A stretch of 24,825 nt of DNA. Source: an uncultured Methanosarcinales archaeon. GTDB lineage: Archaea > Nanobdellota > Nanobdellia > Woesearchaeales > CAYZNE01. The notes under the pieces are model-generated. The model did not search any database. It had not been told where the DNA came from and saw only the letters and a list, made by a program, of their open reading frames with translations. The first letter of the stretch is position 1. Every line of letters starts with the position of its first letter. The position numbers and the translations under genes are program-made. Shown here piece after piece: positions 1,612-21,495 of this stretch. The stretch lies in contig CAYZNE010000002.1 in the NCBI GenBank assembly GCA_964478955.1, positions 1-24,825 on the forward strand, read 5' to 3'.

Positions 1612-1628
1612 CACTCCAAAATGAATTC
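1612..1628 (-). repeat. Degenerate direct copy of the tRNA-Glu(CUC) 3' end
   Basis: Minus strand GAATTCATTTTGGAGTG versus tRNA end GAATCCCGTTTGGAGCA (12/17 identical), directly after hairpin copy 1. Confidence 0.55.
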
Positions 1629-1654
1629 GTACTCAACAGTAAACTGTTGGCACC
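1629..1654 (-). repeat. Bulged-A hairpin element, copy 1
   Basis: Minus strand GGTGC CAACAG TTTA CTGTTG A GTAC. Confidence 0.8.
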
Positions 1655-1689
1655 AAAGGAACTTTGTTTGAATCCCAAAGGATTGTTAA

Positions 1690-8779: not shown

Positions 8780-8808
8780 GGTGCCAATAACTAATAGTTA
8801 TTGAGTAT
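8780..8808 (+). repeat. Bulged-A hairpin element, copy 2 (followed by T tract; may also act as terminator)
   Basis: GGTGC CAATAACTA A TAGTTATTG A GTAT, starting 12 nt after the 8768 stop. Confidence 0.8.
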
Positions 8809-9333: not shown

Positions 9334-9389
9334 TTGCAAGAAAGTTTACGAATACTTTAACTTTTAAGTTAAAGATGCGTTTCTTGCAA
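9334..9389. repeat. Nested inverted repeat / long imperfect hairpin
   Basis: TTGCAAGAAA...TTTCTTGCAA (10 bp) enclosing CTTTAACT-TTTA-AGTTAAAG (8 bp). Confidence 0.65.
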
Positions 9390-9435
9390 GTTCAAAAGTT
9401 TGGTTTTCAAATTTTTGTTATTTTCTTCTTTTCTT

Positions 9436-9479: not shown

Positions 9480-9589
9480 GAGTCCGTAGCTTAGTCCGGT
9501 GGAGCGCTGGTCTTATATGGCCAAATCTCGTTTTAGAGGTTTTGTTCTAAGCTAGCCAGTGGTCGGGGGTTCAAATCCCCTCGGACTCA
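9480..9589 (+). tRNA. tRNA-Ile(UAU) with 36-nt intron (9518-9553) at canonical 37/38
   Basis: Acceptor GAGTCCG/CGGACTC; anticodon stem CTGGT/GCCAG; spliced loop CT-TAT-AA. BHB motif: central helix CTTA/TAAG with two 3-nt bulges (TAT, CTA). Body almost identical to tRNA-Ile(GAU) at 11949. Confidence 0.92.
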
Positions 9590-9717
9590 TTTTTTTTAAT
9601 GAGTTTGTTTTTGGGGTTTGAACTTGTTCCTTTGGTGCAGGAAATCTTTATTTTCCGCACAAATCCCCTCGGACTCATTTTTTTTAATGAGTTTGTTTTT
9701 GGGGTTTGAACTTGTTC
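9572..9717 (+). repeat. Perfect 58-bp direct repeat x2 (9572-9629, 9660-9717) starting in the tRNA T-loop
   Basis: CAAATCCCCTCGGACTCA-T8-AATGAGTTTGTTTTTGGGGTTTGAACTTGTTC occurs twice, period 88. Confidence 0.93.
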
Positions 9718-9734
9718 TGTAGAGTTTTGCTCGA

Positions 9735-9793
9735 GGCACCAAAAATTTTTGATTTTTGAGGGCTTATGGCACCAACAGCAAGCTGTTGAGTAC
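9735..9793 (+). repeat. Bulged-A hairpin element, copies 5 and 6 in tandem
   Basis: GGCAC CAAAAAT TTTTG ATTTTTG A GGGC (9735-9763) and GGCAC CAACAG CAAG CTGTTG A GTAC (9768-9793). Confidence 0.75.
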
Positions 9794-9795
9794 AT

Positions 9796-9811
9796 AATCC
9801 CCTCGGACTCA
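9796..9811 (+). repeat. Third copy of the tRNA-Ile 3' end (att-like)
   Basis: AATCCCCTCGGACTCA, identical to 9574-9589. Confidence 0.9.
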
Positions 9812-9890
9812 CTTCCTTTTCTCAGGCATTTGAAAATAAGATATTTAATCAGAAAATATTATATAGTAAGACTTCTCAGTTAAGTAGTAT

Positions 9891-10688
9891 ATGAAGAATA
9901 AAGAGATATTCAATTGGCTAGTAAGAGAACATGTTGGTAGAGATTGGATGAATGTAAGACCCTATGTTAGAGAAGGAGTTTTAGGCTCAATGAAAGTTGT
10001 CCCTGGAAATACAGAAAATCCTTATTATGGGGGAATTTTAATTTTTGCAAAAGGAAAAAGGTTTGCAGCCAATCTTAAAAAGATGAATATTGTACTTGTA
10101 GGGAAAATGAATGTTTCTTATAATATTTCTACATTTGATAGATTTAGCAGATACTGCAAGAAGTTTCGTGTTGAAGACGGTGCAACCGTTATAGATAAAA
10201 ACAATGCTTTTGCATACTATATTTCTGTGTTTAATAATAATCCTCAGATATTCTGGACATTTAAAGAAAGGTGGGATTTTGCATTTAAAGGAATATACAA
10301 AATTTACAAGATTGGAAAGATGCTTCCATCTGATTTCAAAGACCATAAAGGACTAAATAAAGTTGGCGAATCAATGGATTTGATAGGAAATAAAACTTAT
10401 GTTGCCATTGTTCTCCCTCAAGCTTATCCAAGGGTTCATACATTTCAAATAAAAAGAACTGCATACACTCCTCTTGGAATGGGTAAAGTAACTCATTTCG
10501 ATAGTGAAGGATTGTTAGAAGAATTTTATCTTGTGTACATGCCTAGTTACAAAGGAGAATTTCTAGACGCAAAACACAAAGTTGTTGGCATCTACAGGTA
10601 TTATGATAGAAGTAGAGGAGTAAAAAAGATATTCCGAAGAGAATTGATTATTGGGTGCAGTGATTTGAAACAGATTGGGATGAATTAA
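9891..10688 (+). CDS. Hypothetical protein, possible divergent DAC (DisA_N-like) fold
   Basis: GGILIF strand, EDGATVID (DGA motif), LIGNKTYVAI where DAC enzymes have LGxRHxAA. Overlaps tatD by 4 bp, convergent. Confidence 0.5.
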   Translation: MKNKEIFNWLVREHVGRDWMNVRPYVREGVLGSMKVVPGNTENPYYGGILIFAKGKRFAANLKKMNIVLVGKMNVSYNISTFDRFSRYCKKFRVEDGATVIDKNNAFAYYISVFNNNPQIFWTFKERWDFAFKGIYKIYKIGKMLPSDFKDHKGLNKVGESMDLIGNKTYVAIVLPQAYPRVHTFQIKRTAYTPLGMGKVTHFDSEGLLEEFYLVYMPSYKGEFLDAKHKVVGIYRYYDRSRGVKKIFRRELIIGCSDLKQIGMN

Positions 10689-11461
10689 AGAAACAATCTT
10701 TGGTAATTGAGATAAATGTTATTTGCAACTTCTTCTTCATCTAATTGCTTTAGCTCTGCAATCTTTTTAATGACAACAATTACATTGCTAGAATCATTTA
10801 TCTGACCTTTTGATGGTGCAAGAAATGGTGCATCTGTTTCTGTAAATAATTTGTTTAAGGGTGTGCTTTTTATTATGCTATGAAAATGCAATGCCCTTTC
10901 AACATTAGTTGGAATAGAGAAATACCATCCATTGTTAATTATCCTTTGAATAAATTTTTTCTTTCCTGAAAAGCAGTGCATAATAACTTTCTTAGCTTTC
11001 ATTTCTTCTAATGCAATTATTGTGTCTTCTTCTGCCTTCCTTGAATGCACAATAATTGGAATATCTTTATCAATACTTATCTGTATTAATTTTTTAAAAT
11101 ATTTTATCATTCTTTGCTTTGTTTCATCTGAGAAAAATACTTTATGCTCATGGCCTTTTCCTTGAAAATAATCAAGACCAACTTCACCTATTGCAATACA
11201 CTTATTATTTCTAATAAACTCAAGTTCTTTTTCTAATTGCTCATCAGTATACTCTGCAATATGTGTAGGATAAAATCCTAATGCAGGTTTAACAATATTA
11301 TACTTTTTAGCTAATTCTAAAACATTCCTATTGCTTTCAGGCTCTGTTCCTTGGGTTATGATTACTTTAACACCAGCATTCCTGCATTTAGAAATAACTT
11401 CATCAATTCTCTCAATTAAGCCCTTATAGCTTAAATGGGCATGCACATCAATTAATTCCAT
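10685..11461 (-). CDS. tatD: TatD-family nuclease
   Basis: IDVHAH, GFYP, IGEVGLD, IVHSR, MHCF, TETDAP. Confidence 0.95.
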   Translation of the reverse strand: MELIDVHAHLSYKGLIERIDEVISKCRNAGVKVIITQGTEPESNRNVLELAKKYNIVKPALGFYPTHIAEYTDEQLEKELEFIRNNKCIAIGEVGLDYFQGKGHEHKVFFSDETKQRMIKYFKKLIQISIDKDIPIIVHSRKAEEDTIIALEEMKAKKVIMHCFSGKKKFIQRIINNGWYFSIPTNVERALHFHSIIKSTPLNKLFTETDAPFLAPSKGQINDSSNVIVVIKKIAELKQLDEEEVANNIYLNYQRLFL

Positions 11462-11548
11462 AATAGTGCATTAAATAGAATGTGTTTATTAAGTTTGTGT
11501 AGAATATAAGAATCAAAATAAGAATAAATTAAAATAATAGAATTAGGA

Positions 11549-11650
11549 TTATTTCTTTAATCTTTTACGTTTTTCTTTCTTCATTCTTTTACGTTGCCAC
11601 TTCCAACGCATTTGACCTTTCTTTTTCCAACGTCTTGAACTTCTCTTCAA
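11549..11650 (-). CDS. rpl41e: Ribosomal protein eL41 / eS32 (archaeal), 33 aa, not in the ORF track
   Basis: TTG start after GGTGA; translation MKRSSRRWKKKGQMRWKWQRKRMKKEKRKRLKK matches the archaeal L41e pattern as I recall it. Confidence 0.88.
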   Translation of the reverse strand: MKRSSRRWKKKGQMRWKWQRKRMKKEKRKRLKK

Positions 11651-11718
11651 TTTATCACCAAATTATCATATATTTTTCTTCTTGCTCTCCTAACGGAAAC
11701 CTCATATAATTTTAAATA

Positions 11719-11733
11719 TGCTCCAAATGGGAT
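11719..11733 (-). repeat. Direct copy of the tRNA-Glu 3' end
   Basis: Minus strand ATCCCATTTGGAGCA versus ATCCCGTTCGGAGCA (Glu-UUC) and ATCCCGTTTGGAGCA (Glu-CUC). Confidence 0.8.
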
Positions 11734-11752
11734 CCGTAGCAATTTCTTGCGA

Positions 11753-11782
11753 GGTGTCCAATAACCGTAGGTTATTGAGTAT
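11753..11782 (+). repeat. Bulged-A hairpin element, copy 7 (antisense to the adjacent tRNA)
   Basis: GGTGTC CAATAACC GTA GGTTATTG A GTAT. Confidence 0.75.
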
Positions 11783-11783
11783 C

Positions 11784-11802
11784 TTCGAATCTCGTTGGAA
11801 TA
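11784..11802 (+). repeat. Inverted degenerate copy of the tRNA-Glu(UUC) 3' end
   Basis: Plus strand TTCGAATCTCGTT-GGAATA versus tRNA TTCGAATCCCGTTCGGAGCA. Confidence 0.7.
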
Positions 11803-11806
11803 TAAA

Positions 11807-11881
11807 TGCTCCGAACGGGATTCGAACCCGTGTCCTCGGATCGAAAATCCGAGATGATTGACCGGACTACACCATCGGAGC
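11807..11881 (-). tRNA. tRNA-Glu(UUC)
   Basis: Acceptor GCTCCGA/TCGGAGC, anticodon arm TCGGA-TTTTCGA-TCCGA, T-loop TTCGAAT; CCA not encoded. Confidence 0.96.
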
Positions 11882-11948
11882 AAACTCTCGTAACTAATTG
11901 GATTAAACTTCTATTTAAAAGCTTTTTGAAATTAGTAGAATTATAGAA

Positions 11949-12022
11949 TGAGTCCGAGGGGATTTGAACCCCCGACCACTCGATTATCAGTCGAGCACTC
12001 CACCGGACTAAGCTACGGACTC
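11949..12022 (-). tRNA. tRNA-Ile(GAU)
   Basis: Acceptor GAGTCCG/CGGACTC, anticodon arm CTCGA-CTGATAA-TCGAG, T-loop TTCAAAT. Confidence 0.96.
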
Positions 12023-12023
12023 A

Positions 12024-21223: not shown

Positions 21224-21495
21224 GTAGGTAAGTAGCTAACTTTCGCTCTTAGAGTGAGGAAAGTCTGCCCACCATAAAAGGTCAGCACATATGTGTGTCT
21301 TGAAAAGGACGGCAACCACTCAGAAACGGTACCTCTTGAGTGCAGAATGATGGATTAAATCCTGACATTGCTTAAGGATGGTTGAAACGGTGAGCCCTGA
21401 CTGGTGCAAGTTGTATAACGCTTAGTAGAATGTTAGCAAAGTTCATCCAAGCTTTGGCTTTGGGACTTACAGAAGGTAGCTTATCGCTTGCCTAC
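21224..21495 (+). ncRNA. rnpB: RNase P RNA (archaeal, short)
   Basis: P1 GTAGGTAAG/CTTGCCTAC, GAGGAAAGTC, AGAAAC, TGAAAC, GGTGCAAG, TAGAATG, ACAGAAGGTAGCTTA; P4 CTGCC/GGTAG; TATA-like TTTAAAAA about 22 nt upstream. Confidence 0.93.

Follow-up and report, generated by a model that had tools for sequence, protein, structure and literature searches.

Tandem hairpin modules joined to the T-loop behind tRNA-Ile(UAU) in a small salt-lake archaeon resemble the tRNA-linked repeats of E. coli

How does a tRNA gene come to be followed by further copies of its own 3' end, with hairpins set between them? The question is raised by the tRNA-Ile(UAU) locus of a small salt-lake archaeon whose group is AT-rich and DPANN-like. 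The locus lies in the window, that is, the whole stretch of 24,825 nucleotides that was analyzed. The parts of the array are as follows:

9480-9589, plus strand: tRNA-Ile(UAU), complete (Rfam tRNA, 55.6 bits)
about 9518-9554, plus strand: intron of 36 nt in the anticodon loop of this tRNA (ARAGORN -i: tat, i(40,36))
9572-9629, plus strand: copy 1 of a perfect 58-mer, beginning at T-loop C56
9572-9659, plus strand: 88-bp unit, present or absent between assemblies, its register being ambiguous within the 58-bp repeat
9630-9659, plus strand: spacer 1, linker CTTTGG and bulged hairpin variant 1 (from folding)
9660-9717, plus strand: copy 2 of the 58-mer, 100% identical to copy 1
9718-9795, plus strand: interval 2, linker TGTAGAGTTTTGCTCGAGG and two hairpins of the GGTGCC..GAGYAY family (from folding)
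9794-9812, plus strand: copy 3 of the tRNA 3' end, 16 nt identical (9796-9811), then C TTCC...

The two identical 58-mers of the original prediction, offset by 88 bp as a direct repeat, and its third 16-mer were thus confirmed, as was their junction inside the T-loop (C56/A57; a slash marks the junction throughout). The 16-mer AATCCCCTCGGACTCA matched at 9574, 9662, and 9796 on the plus strand and at 11949-11964 on the minus strand (0.01 matches expected by chance), the fourth match lying within tRNA-Ile(GAU). Copy 1 consists of C56 to A73 of the tRNA (9572-9589), T8 and AATGAGT (9590-9612), GGGGTTTGAAC (9613-9623), TT, and GTTC (9626-9629). The T8 run stands directly 3' of the tRNA and, with AATGAGT, represents an inverted copy of the acceptor 3' end, while GGGGTTTGAAC is an inverted T-arm copy. 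Beyond tRNA 3' end and trailer, the block thus contains, in its last 17 nt (GGGGTTTGAAC TT GTTC), the inverted T-arm copy and a restarted direct GTTC. A terminator scan and folding revealed the palindrome CGGACTCATT-TTTTTT-AATGAGTTTG in copy 1. Both ends of the repeated block abut GTTC (GTTC/AAATC in the T-loop, and GTTC at 9626-9629).

The intervals between the repeats measure 30 and 78 bp and contain hairpins as predicted. The hairpin of spacer 1 is GTGC-A-GGAAA/TTTCC-GCAC, its final C being common to copy 2, and the spacer shows 83% identity with the cassette that follows tRNA-Ile(UAU) in another species (L021/L017). Interval 2 carries hairpins at 9735-9763 and 9768-9793. Its type of linker was also found behind tRNA-Glu in L017/L021 and at a second metagenome locus, there followed by a T-loop fragment of another tRNA (AAATCACGTCCC; loose contig ends). 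In the register 9573-9660, the 88-bp unit is one complete module, and the array amounts to two full modules and a terminal copy. Copy 3 is presumably the original tRNA 3' end, displaced with its native downstream sequence.

A repeat of 58 bp exceeds small assembler k-mers, and assemblies disagree on whether the array has one unit or two, as might be expected if the repeat had been falsely duplicated or collapsed. However, the junction of copy 1, spacer, and copy 2 was carried by seven metagenome runs and six independent assemblies from two pipelines. In five runs, Logan k=31 unitigs showed the 58-nt node at about 1.4-2.1 times the flank depth and a 90-nt unitig (9600-9689) covering the end of copy 1, the spacer, and the start of copy 2; two more runs yielded a 118-nt Logan contig (9572-9689). 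Contigs at k=31 look alike for the one-unit and the two-unit form. As a gauge of a mixed population, the loop unitig reached 0.55-0.98 of the flank depth, as did the equally short copy-1 junction unitig in three of the five runs. Beyond the window, the two-copy form is present in five independent JGI/ENA assemblies (L001, L002, L005, L007, and L008), and another assembly (L004) begins inside spacer 1. With the junction unitig in seven runs and the repeat node at nearly double depth, false duplication as the source of the two-unit form is essentially refuted; the same architecture in many unrelated contigs likewise speaks against an artefact, to which we assign a negligible probability.

In line with the strain-level variation named as a check by the original prediction, the assemblies L003, L006, and L009 of near-identical strains are shorter by exactly one 88-bp unit. 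L003 also differs from the window by 2 SNPs over 5 kb and therefore represents a separate strain. Unit number at this locus thus probably varies between strains, the one-unit form being known from assemblies rather than from spanning reads. A difference in unit number was also found in a second lineage (2 x 111 bp in L021 versus one unit in L017 and L023), and perfect tandem units occur in L028 (3 x 83 bp) and L015 (2 x 140 bp).

The module is not confined to tRNA-Ile(UAU). Of the tRNA transcription units that were examined across this archaeal group (Ile, Glu, Thr, Ser, Met, and Phe), most have one to four protein-less modules behind their last tRNA. Each comprises, in order, a leader, an inverted T-arm copy (GGATTYGAAC), 2-3 nt, GTTC, a linker, a family hairpin, and the 3' end of its own tRNA, starting at T-loop C56/A57 of the tRNA that it follows. 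Among AT-rich relatives, the cassette combined with the local 3' end was found behind Ile-UAU, Ile-GAU, Glu-UUC, Glu-CUC, Thr-UGU, Ser-GGA, Met-CAU, and Phe-GAA; genomes with the cassette core have 22-31% GC. In JGI metagenomes, all 11 hairpin-bearing matches of a 22-nt cassette pattern adjoined a tRNA or a tRNA 3' copy, directly downstream of it. Every junction falls at T-loop positions 56-58 (for example ..CAC/AAATCC and ..ACGG/AATCC). The copied 3' ends are 16-18 nt long with 0-1 mismatch in proximal copies, and the duplications measure 17, 22, 28, 29, 30, 37, or 58 bp. Roughly 30 modules were seen, all of 66-140 bp; no module has a recognisable gene, and no extra copy is farther than about 350 nt from its tRNA.

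Cassettes behind different tRNAs were each other's best match in two of four genomes (0.86-0.87). Within L035, the inverted T-arm copy matches the local type of T-loop (GATTCGAAC at Glu, GATTTGAAC at Ile). This copy spans only 9-12 nt in most modules, including a young L035 Glu module with perfect 37-bp repeats. The leaders between tRNA and cassette are unrelated from module to module; those of the window and of L020 can be recognised as the entire tRNA 3' region copied in inverted orientation, with the T-run at the centre. Runs of T5-T8 stand directly 3' of the tRNA and of each copy. Our literature searches found no description of such modules in DPANN archaea, which is no proof of absence.

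Three further features of the window belong to this picture:

11948-12023, minus strand: tRNA-Ile(GAU), inverted relative to tRNA-Ile(UAU), without a module, followed by tRNA-Glu(UUC)
11719-11805, minus strand: module behind tRNA-Glu(UUC), with GATTCGAAG, an inverted family hairpin, a second hairpin (CGCAAGAAATTGC), and a decayed Glu 3' copy (GATCCCATTTGGAGCA)
1612-1688, minus strand: module behind tRNA-Glu(CUC) (I21), with GGGATTCAAAC AAA GTTCC TTTGG, a hairpin, and an eroded 3' copy (GAATTCATTTTGGAGTG)

As predicted, no array stands behind tRNA-Ile(GAU) in this genome, and this gene shares its 3' end with tRNA-Ile(UAU), the last 34 nt being the same in both (inverted repeat I2).

The hairpins form a family of imperfect palindromes that sits at gene ends in either orientation and sometimes in tandem. 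The window contains eight of them (1629-1655 and at 8782, 8828, 9289, 9635, 9737, 9770, and 11758). All 19 sampled members folded to 8-14 bp, usually with a bulged A, and the basal helix shows compensatory changes (TGCC/GAGCA, CACC/GAGTG, and TCCC/GAGGA). The fold of the L025 module had a z score of -4.3. Furthermore, GGATTYG can pair with CRAATCC of the 3' copy, with matching of the Glu versus the Ile type or G-U pairs in several modules.

Relatives also provide sites without a module. In L032, the orthologous tRNA-Ile(UAU) is empty, and copy 3 of the window with its flank aligns with the L032 tRNA end and the sequence downstream. Similarly, tRNA-Glu of L041 lacks the module that L035 carries between perfect 37-bp repeats. 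An empty site may also be read as precise deletion between direct repeats, with the opposite polarity. The module at tRNA-Ile(UAU) of L020 is decayed, and distal copies are usually more diverged than proximal ones. The segment between the two inverted tRNA-Ile genes flips between lineages (2.4 kb). Upstream in L032, a 16-mer in inverted orientation (2 mismatches) coincides in part with the start codon and ribosome-binding site of the following gene; we took it for a chance match.

Among the ORFs of at least 100 amino acids scanned in the window, only housekeeping genes were encoded, with no recombinase or transposase, and no cas domains were found in the window. The sole ORF across the array (9571-9795, minus strand, 74 amino acids) had no Pfam match and is regarded as spurious. 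None of 65 tRNAs in 212 kb had a distant partial copy or an integrase remnant, and Rfam returned nothing except the tRNA, at the gathering or the E-value threshold. No RNA run was found to contain the locus. In IMG/VR, no contig carried the cassette or leader pattern, or the core plus leader. The 16-nt core had three matches there, two in GC-rich coding sequence and one (L010) inside a Mom/PolB phage ORF, all judged to be chance.

Our preferred explanation, at a probability of about 0.5, is that the array consists of small non-coding insertion or duplication modules that are anchored in the T-loop, stacked, and resized by recombination between repeats. In its favour are the one cassette followed by the local 3' end behind eight tRNAs, the uniform position of the T-loop junctions, the empty sites, the polymorphic unit number in two lineages, the likeness of cassettes within genomes together with the match of the inverted T-arm copy to the local T-loop type, the usual decay of distal copies, the small size of the gene-less modules, the T8 run next to the tRNA, and the conserved folds of the hairpins. 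Each module would supply a replacement tRNA 3' end (T-loop A57 to A73 and a little trailer) and a short leader, followed by the inverted T-arm copy (GGATTYGAAC), 2-3 nt, GTTC, and a hairpin of the gene-end family. With C56 of the working tRNA on one side and the former 3' end on the other, it would push the latter downstream together with its native flank, leaving that older end free to decay. Copied among the tRNA genes within genomes, the modules would behave as a non-autonomous element acted on in trans, at the level of DNA rather than RNA; candidate enzymes include a site-specific recombinase with T-loop specificity and a nuclease acting on single strands (HUH-type). With a second copy of a 3' end in place, homologous recombination or slippage between the copies could change unit number, and so could unequal inversion involving the inverted pair of tRNA-Ile genes. 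The latest step, one 88-bp unit gained or lost and still polymorphic, would then be marked by the perfect 58-bp repeat.

Several points count against this explanation, among them the lack of a recombinase or transposase among the window ORFs scanned, the possible reading of empty sites as deletions, and the one-unit form being known from assemblies. A double-stranded circle of 88 bp is implausible on physical grounds as an intermediate, unrelated leaders are odd for a single mobile unit, and a cassette serving many tRNAs must acquire a matching 3' end each time. Neither a classical integrase nor a fixed-ruler model explains the matching 3' ends, and the duplications vary from 17 to 58 bp. The original prediction had the array growing at the tRNA by sequential, recent insertions. 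The perfect identity of the 58-mers agrees with recent copies, and growth next to the tRNA fits the relatives, given the alignment of the distal copy with the empty site of L032 and the usually stronger decay of distal copies. A fresh insertion is not required for the 58-mer, since homologous recombination between the repeats explains gain or loss equally well. The predicted alternation of conserved repeats with variable hairpin spacers held with respect to the hairpins; the spacers are not free-form, belonging instead to a conserved cassette behind at least eight tRNA species.

Local errors of replication or recombination might have generated the array with no mobile element. The T-arm palindrome and the terminator hairpins would provoke template switching or fold-back synthesis and leave an inverted and then a direct partial 3' copy, to be amplified by slippage or unequal crossing-over, and gene conversion would homogenise the cassettes of each genome. 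A direct-inverted-direct order is the product of template-switch 'inverted triplications', the leaders in the window and L020 have the expected form of an inverted copy of the whole tRNA 3' region, and direct repeats of 17-58 bp predict both perfect tandem arrays and changes in unit number. E. coli tRNA-linked repeats (TLRs) share the architecture, a point in favour of a mechanism independent of any lineage-specific enzyme. Recombination of the two inverted tRNA-Ile genes has turned over the intervening segment between lineages; after an unequal flip, UAU would end up with two stacked modules and GAU with none, which is just the state of the window. We nevertheless consider this origin rather unlikely, since eight different tRNAs are followed by the conserved 22-nt core in genomes of 22-31% GC, and cassettes 86-87% alike behind different tRNAs call for inter-locus transfer or strong selection. 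Moreover, inverted copies of mostly 9-12 nt, even in the young L035 Glu module, indicate that modules did not start as long palindromes, and a long fold-back palindrome was rejected as their general origin.

A functional RNA or a processing module, of the kind suggested for some E. coli TLRs, would account for other features. Here the trailer would be transcribed with the tRNA, its inverted T-arm copy would pair with the 3' copy as a minihelix-like structure or clamp, and the copied tail would let tRNA 3'-end enzymes release a small RNA, or would define or terminate the transcript. The compensatory changes that preserve the hairpin, the possible GGATTYG-CRAATCC pairing in several modules, the z score of the L025 module, and the presence of modules behind most terminal tRNAs sampled in the clade are consistent with such a role, as is the processing of RttR and RrA/B/F from TLRs in E. 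coli (PMC8144298). In contrast, the empty L032 site and the decayed L020 module indicate that the module is dispensable; copy number varies, distal copies decay, leaders are not conserved, and Rfam has no match. Runs of T5-T8 directly 3' of the tRNA and each copy are a further obstacle. A T8 run is an archaeal terminator signal, and where it follows the tRNA at once, co-transcription of the modules is unlikely. On balance, a functional RNA appears distinctly doubtful. The modules could finally be scars (attL/attR) of kb-sized integrative plasmids or viruses whose interiors were lost from a streamlined genome, so that both element ends are left between tRNA 3'-end repeats, and which were stacked by successive integrations, in a tycheposon- or ssrA-like manner. 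An intact tRNA with displaced partial copies in direct orientation is what such integrations leave, identity sometimes runs beyond the tRNA end, the T-loop is a known integrase sublocation (Williams 2002, cited in PMC9897764), and in tycheposons the newest element is stacked nearest the tRNA (10.1101/2020.12.28.424599). This origin is very unlikely, however: random deletion would have spread sizes beyond the 66-140 bp of roughly 30 modules, none of the 65 tRNAs in 212 kb revealed a distant partial copy or integrase remnant, and no cassette-bearing contig is present in IMG/VR.

The preferred explanation, small modules anchored in the T-loop, can be carried further, to a reading that is itself unlikely: the 88-bp unit would be a complete protein-less mobile element with its own target mimic, and the same process would have made the E. 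coli TLRs. In a single-stranded unit, GGGGTTTGAAC would pair with GTTC...AAATCCCC across the hairpin and recreate the T-arm of the tRNA gene in duplex form, from which the hairpin would branch off at C56/A57. The folded unit would be comparable to attP of the CTX phage or attC of integrons. A T-arm-binding recombinase of host or plasmid, or a HUH nuclease nicking at GTTC/A, would insert it, and the tRNA would be restored. If this is true, the modules would belong to a cross-domain class of tRNA-programmed mini-elements.

Among known systems, the attL/attR duplications of tRNA-targeting integrative elements, reportedly described by Reiter in 1989, share with the array an intact tRNA with displaced direct partial 3' copies, the T-loop junction, a presumed original end in the outermost position, and an empty site in a relative. 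The archaeal modules differ by having no integrase, cargo, or size spread, being 66-140 bp of hairpins each, and by one cassette serving many different tRNAs. Tandem accretion at tRNA or ssrA genes is known from tycheposons (10.1101/2020.12.28.424599) and ssrA islands (PMC3146451). REP/BIME sequences with RAYT and ORF-less IS200/IS605 elements (PATEs) are likewise short imperfect palindromes with a conserved bulge, repeated at gene ends and preserved in structure by compensatory changes; unlike the archaeal modules, they leave no target duplication and have no link to tRNA 3' ends. We know of no IS91-family element from archaea. Rolling-circle elements of this family insert 3' of GTTC/CTTG (here the slash separates alternatives), have subterminal imperfect palindromes, move via single-strand circles, and can carry off adjacent DNA (PMC13181058). 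The archaeal junctions also follow GTTC, yet GTTC is part of every T-loop, and the likeness is an analogy only; no HUH transposase was found among the window ORFs.

Direct repeats alternating with other sequence beside a fixed 'leader', and the duplication of a tRNA 3' end, recall CRISPR arrays and casposon target duplications. In contrast to CRISPR, the archaeal loci have only 2-4 repeats, and their 'spacers' are one hairpin family. A CRISPR array was rejected on the basis of three copies, spacers made of family hairpins and repeated leader, and the lack of cas domains in the window; a casposon or Cas1-type fixed-ruler duplication was rejected on the basis of lengths of 17-58 bp and the lack of terminal inverted repeats. 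A split tRNA or T-loop intron was dismissed as well: there is no BHB, the tRNA is complete with copy 1, and inspection shows that the putative intron start (AAATCC..) and the end of the hairpin (..CCGCAC) are unable to pair as a central helix of 4 bp.

Modules of this kind have practical consequences, as they yield partial tRNA matches and break assemblies; an N-gap lies inside one L020 array. They are also inverted and direct repeats that rearrange small genomes, and here they are associated with the 2.4-kb flip between the tRNA-Ile genes.

The modules look like an archaeal counterpart of the E. coli TLRs, which have reportedly been known since 1978 from the work of Egan and Landy, with a later account said to be that of Rudd (1999). 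TLRs occur directly behind tRNA or rRNA genes as 1-5 units per locus, for example as the RttR-containing units of 178 bp at tyrT/tyrV. Transcripts processed from TLRs include RttR and RrA/B/F, no function has been established for the TLRs in tRNA operons, and their origin is unexplained (PMC8144298). In E. coli K-12, the tyrT/tyrV units contain an inverted T-stem/acceptor 3' strand (GGGGAAGGAT), a direct 5' part of the T-arm (AAGGTTCGA), a hairpin-bearing insert, and an exact 19-mer of the tRNA 3' end that starts inside the T-loop (A58) and closes each unit. This internal order is the same in 15 archaeal modules. Both kinds of units stand directly behind a tRNA (1-5 units in E. coli, 1-4 in the archaeal relatives) and close with a duplicate of that tRNA's 3' end (18-19 nt versus 16-18 nt). 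Unlike the TLRs of about 178 bp, the archaeal units measure 66-140 bp and carry no CCA, which archaeal tRNA genes do not encode; they represent one conserved cassette across many tRNAs and genomes, and their number differs between assemblies of near-identical strains. Transcripts are known for the TLRs, whereas the archaeal modules are known here from DNA alone. When the units and the archaeal cassettes were read side by side, no sequence resemblance was seen beyond the tRNA-derived parts; the likeness is architectural, and we therefore call the archaeal modules TLR-like rather than members of the TLRs. With one cassette for many tRNAs, perfect repeats, empty sites, and differing unit numbers, this archaeal lineage appears to present the TLR architecture in a simpler, younger, and apparently active state, and it makes testable by sequence what duplicates a tRNA tail from the T-loop on with a hairpin in between.

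The array behind tRNA-Ile(UAU) is real. It is a polymorphic case of a tRNA-tail duplication module that carries no genes, is anchored in the T-loop, and occurs throughout the lineage; its one-unit form is probable. The original prediction of a perfect 58-bp repeat and a third 3' copy was confirmed in coordinates and identity, and hairpin inserts were indeed found in both intervals. Default ARAGORN overlooks this intron-bearing tRNA. The relevant features of the window are as follows.

1612-1688: module behind tRNA-Glu(CUC)
9480-9589, plus strand: tRNA-Ile(UAU), with a 36-nt anticodon-loop intron, followed by the array
9572-9629, plus strand: 58-mer, copy 1
interval 1, 30 nt: CTTTGG and a bulged hairpin
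9660-9717, plus strand: 58-mer, copy 2, a perfect match
interval 2, 78 nt: TGTAGAGTTTTGCTCGAGG and two hairpins of the window's GGTGCC..GAGYAY family
9796-9811: third occurrence of the 16-mer AATCCCCTCGGACTCA
11719-11805: module behind tRNA-Glu(UUC)
21224-21495: archaeal RNase P RNA

The 16-mer (chance expectation 0.01 matches) also occurs once on the minus strand, within tRNA-Ile(GAU), which shares the 3' sequence and is bare of any array, as had been predicted. The 58-mer holds more than the tail and trailer of the tRNA: 3' of the discriminator A73 follow T8, AATGAGT (ACTCATT copied in inverted orientation), GGGGTTTGAAC (the T-arm, G53-C64, likewise copied inverted), TT, and GTTC. The tRNA intron (9518-9554) starts GGCCAAATCTC..GAGGTTTTG and bears a weak, loose likeness to the family hairpin (GGTGCCAA-stem-loop-stem-TTGAG).

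The window, AT-rich and archaeal at 30.9% GC, comes from salt-lake metagenomes and carries housekeeping genes (gyrA, STT3/AglB, TatD, FtsY, prefoldin, eIF-6, FttA, proteasome, aaRS, and HerA); none of them showed a recombinase or transposase domain. Among species-representative genomes, the tRNA-Ile 3' end was matched exactly in MAGs titled Woesearchaeota, Nanoarchaeota, and, in the closest cases, 'uncultured Methanosarcinales'. Because these MAGs are differently titled, the organism is described as DPANN-like and its label is left open.

Support for the array was sought by searching Logan k=31 contigs for its pieces. Five runs contained a 58-nt unitig with about double the flank depth, a 40-nt unitig linking it with the tRNA, and a 90-nt unitig (9600-9689) connecting copy 1 to copy 2 across the spacer; in two further runs a 118-nt contig spanned 9572-9689. 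Among contigs of nine other samples, selected by an identical 265-aa neighbour, five (L001, L002, L005, L007, and L008) had two units and one (L004) started within spacer 1. The two-unit form is certain, given the junction-spanning unitigs and the two-unit contigs of independent samples, and the assembly artefact considered in the original prediction does not account for it. The remaining three contigs (L003, L006, and L009) lacked exactly 88 bp and were otherwise identical, or two SNPs apart (L003). Strain-level variation in unit number is therefore partly borne out: the one-unit form was recovered in three assemblies from two pipelines, one of them a distinguishable strain, which makes it probable, but it is assembly-based and falls short of proof, since a 58-bp repeat is too long for k=31 contigs to bridge and the depth ratios do not stand out from noise. 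A second lineage had two 111-bp units in L021 versus one in L017 and L023. In L020 (4930-5100), a run of N, either an assembly gap or masked, lies inside a tandem module pair behind tRNA-Glu(UUC); arrays of this kind break assemblies. Upstream of the tRNA promoter, at 9352-9397 within a nested inverted repeat, other contigs reached up to 134-248x versus 5-25x in the flanks and carried 2-6 differences; in these metagenomes the stretch is therefore an element present in several copies or several organisms.

In the window, a trailer of this type follows each terminal tRNA: Glu-CUC, Glu-UUC, and Ile-UAU. Loci of relatives were fetched by tRNA 3' end, by the cassette pattern GATTTGAACNNNGTTCCTTTGG (the cassette being the part from inverted T-arm copy to hairpin), and by homologues of the neighbouring gene. 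In these loci, on contigs of 22-31% GC, modules follow eight tRNA species: Ile-UAU, Ile-GAU, Glu-UUC, Glu-CUC, Thr-UGU (L025), Ser-GGA (L026), Met-CAU (L028, three 83-bp units), and Phe-GAA (L031, two modules). In the consensus, the tRNA end is followed by a leader of 13-49 nt, G(0-4)ATTYGAAC, 2-3 nt, GTTCC, a linker (TTTGG, ACAGAG, or GTAGAGCTTTGCTCGAGG), a bulged hairpin ending in GAGCAC/T, and the local tRNA repeated from T-loop C56/A57 up to its discriminator, a copy that often extends 3-20 nt past the tRNA end (40 nt in the window). The T-loop junction is identical in a second cassette type (..TATTTGAACAYAGTCAGAAAT..CGC..GCTACGG|AATCC..) and in a different 140-bp unit of the 42%-GC Woesearchaeote L015.

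All 11 hairpin-bearing matches to the cassette pattern lie behind a tRNA or tRNA copy, and the five matches without a hairpin are unrelated sequence. The fetched DNA amounts to 212 kb with 65 tRNAs, and no extra 3' copy in it was more than about 350 nt from its own tRNA. All 19 sampled hairpins fold, with differing stems of 8-14 bp; the basal helix shows compensatory changes, and a single bulged A is usual. Ile and Glu cassettes within one genome (L019, L035) are 86-87% identical, more than orthologous positions across genomes. The one exception is the 83% identity between the spacer-1 cassette of the window and the Ile-UAU cassette of L021. In L035 the inverted T-arm copy reads GATTCGAAC at Glu and GATTTGAAC at Ile, in keeping with the T-loop type of each locus.

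Several further occurrences were seen. Loose-end metagenome contigs at window 9705-9747 reveal a second locus with TTGAACTTGTTCTGTAGAGTTTTGCTCGAGGCACCAAAAATTT (two differences), continuing ..AATTTTTGAGGGC|AAATCACGTCCC, the same cassette type against a T-loop fragment of a different tRNA. The tRNA-Ile(GAU)/tRNA-Glu gap of L032 (5240-5370, minus strand) is about 65 nt longer than that of the window and holds an inverted family hairpin and a CGCAAGAAATTGC hairpin with no tRNA 3' copy, so hairpin units can occur alone. The FtsY coding region contains, on the opposite strand, a well-formed family hairpin, TGCCAATAATCTCTGGATTATTGAGCAT, with AACTTGTTGG before it (L035:640-670, L036:1630-1657), and a near-identical copy lies in the corresponding stretch of L041 (165-192, minus strand).

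The comparison with relatives proposed in the original prediction yielded both an empty and a decayed site. In L032, which shares the window's synteny and whose 265-aa neighbour protein is 86% identical, tRNA-Ile(UAU) is followed directly by C TTTT.. and the neighbouring gene. This tRNA end and flank align with copy 3 of the window together with its flanking sequence (..CTCA C TTCC..), whereas T8 follows copies 1 and 2. The likewise syntenic L020 has a single decayed module, the last remnant of which, TTGGGCTCA, retains the L032-type acceptor sequence. At tRNA-Glu, the L035 module lies between perfect 37-bp repeats and L041 has only an older decayed copy. The two tRNA-Ile genes form inverted repeats 2.4 kb apart with identical 3' 34 nt, and the 2.4-3.2-kb segment between them (window 9480-12023) is flipped between lineages: UAU precedes the 265-aa gene and GAU tRNA-Glu in the window, L020, and L032; UAU precedes tRNA-Glu in L017, L019, and L035-L041, with GAU before the 265-aa gene in L035-L041.

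The distal copy with its native flank is most likely the original tRNA end, from which the GTAGAG-linker, two-hairpin module came to separate the tRNA. The latest difference would be the 88-bp unit of tail, leader, inverted T-arm, GTTC, and CTTTGG-hairpin. It may have arrived by a second insertion at C56|A57, the unit bringing a replacement tail, or by recombination between existing copies, in which an unequal flip would pair the distal UAU copy with the GAU T-arm, stacking both modules behind UAU and leaving GAU bare, as in the window. The precursor state that such a flip requires is seen in L017/L021, where the Ile genes share the leader and differ in their hairpins. Both routes give the window structure exactly; the first corresponds to the sequential T-loop insertion originally proposed. 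With 58-bp repeats just 30 bp apart, slippage should often remove one unit.

For the origin of the first tail copy at each tRNA, every model considered meets a difficulty: a classical integrase with the tiny size, the lack of a gene, and the many tRNAs served; a staggered cut with duplication lengths varying from 17 to 58 bp; and a template switch with the conserved cassette. Action of the module at the RNA level is unlikely. T5-T8 runs, which should halt transcription by archaeal intrinsic termination, stand directly 3' of the tRNA and of each copy, the orthologous site in two relatives has an absent or decayed module, and no Rfam family matched the module. Splicing at the junctions was rejected: no bulge-helix-bulge can form, and the tRNA needs no splice there. 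We regard the modules, with a probability of about 0.5, as non-autonomous insertion/duplication modules.

Among known systems, att duplications of integrative elements and their stacking have in common with the modules the direct repeats, a junction in the T-loop, and older copies pushed outward (PMC9897764; tycheposons, 10.1101/2020.12.28.424599); the archaeal modules differ by their small size and lack of integrase and cargo. REP/PATE elements share imperfect palindromes at gene ends, and IS91-family elements, by analogy only, a GTTC target and subterminal palindromes (PMC13181058). The closest published analogue is the tRNA-linked repeat (TLR) family of E. coli. Its 22 members are spread over ten loci with 1-5 units at each, every unit ends in 18-19 bp that match the 3' end of the upstream tRNA or rRNA exactly, and those linked to tRNAs have no known function (PMC8144298). 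In the K-12 tyrT/tyrV region (L042, 1286900-1287540), units end in AATCCTTCCCCCACCACCA, starting at T-loop A58; upstream lie GGGGAAGGAT, an inverted copy of ATCCTTCCCC, then CTTCGACCAAGGTTCGA, a direct copy of the variable arm and 5' part of the T-stem, and an 80-nt hairpin-bearing insert. The unit thus combines an inverted tRNA-Tyr 3' strand with a direct T-arm 5' copy whose T-loop is interrupted by the insert, an architecture of which we found no explicit description in PMC8144298. No published description of such modules in DPANN archaea was found in the literature searched. The part order equals that of the archaeal modules, which are best filed, by analogy, as TLR-like: a kind already known from E. 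coli yet unexplained, of which the DPANN archaeal version appears to be new.
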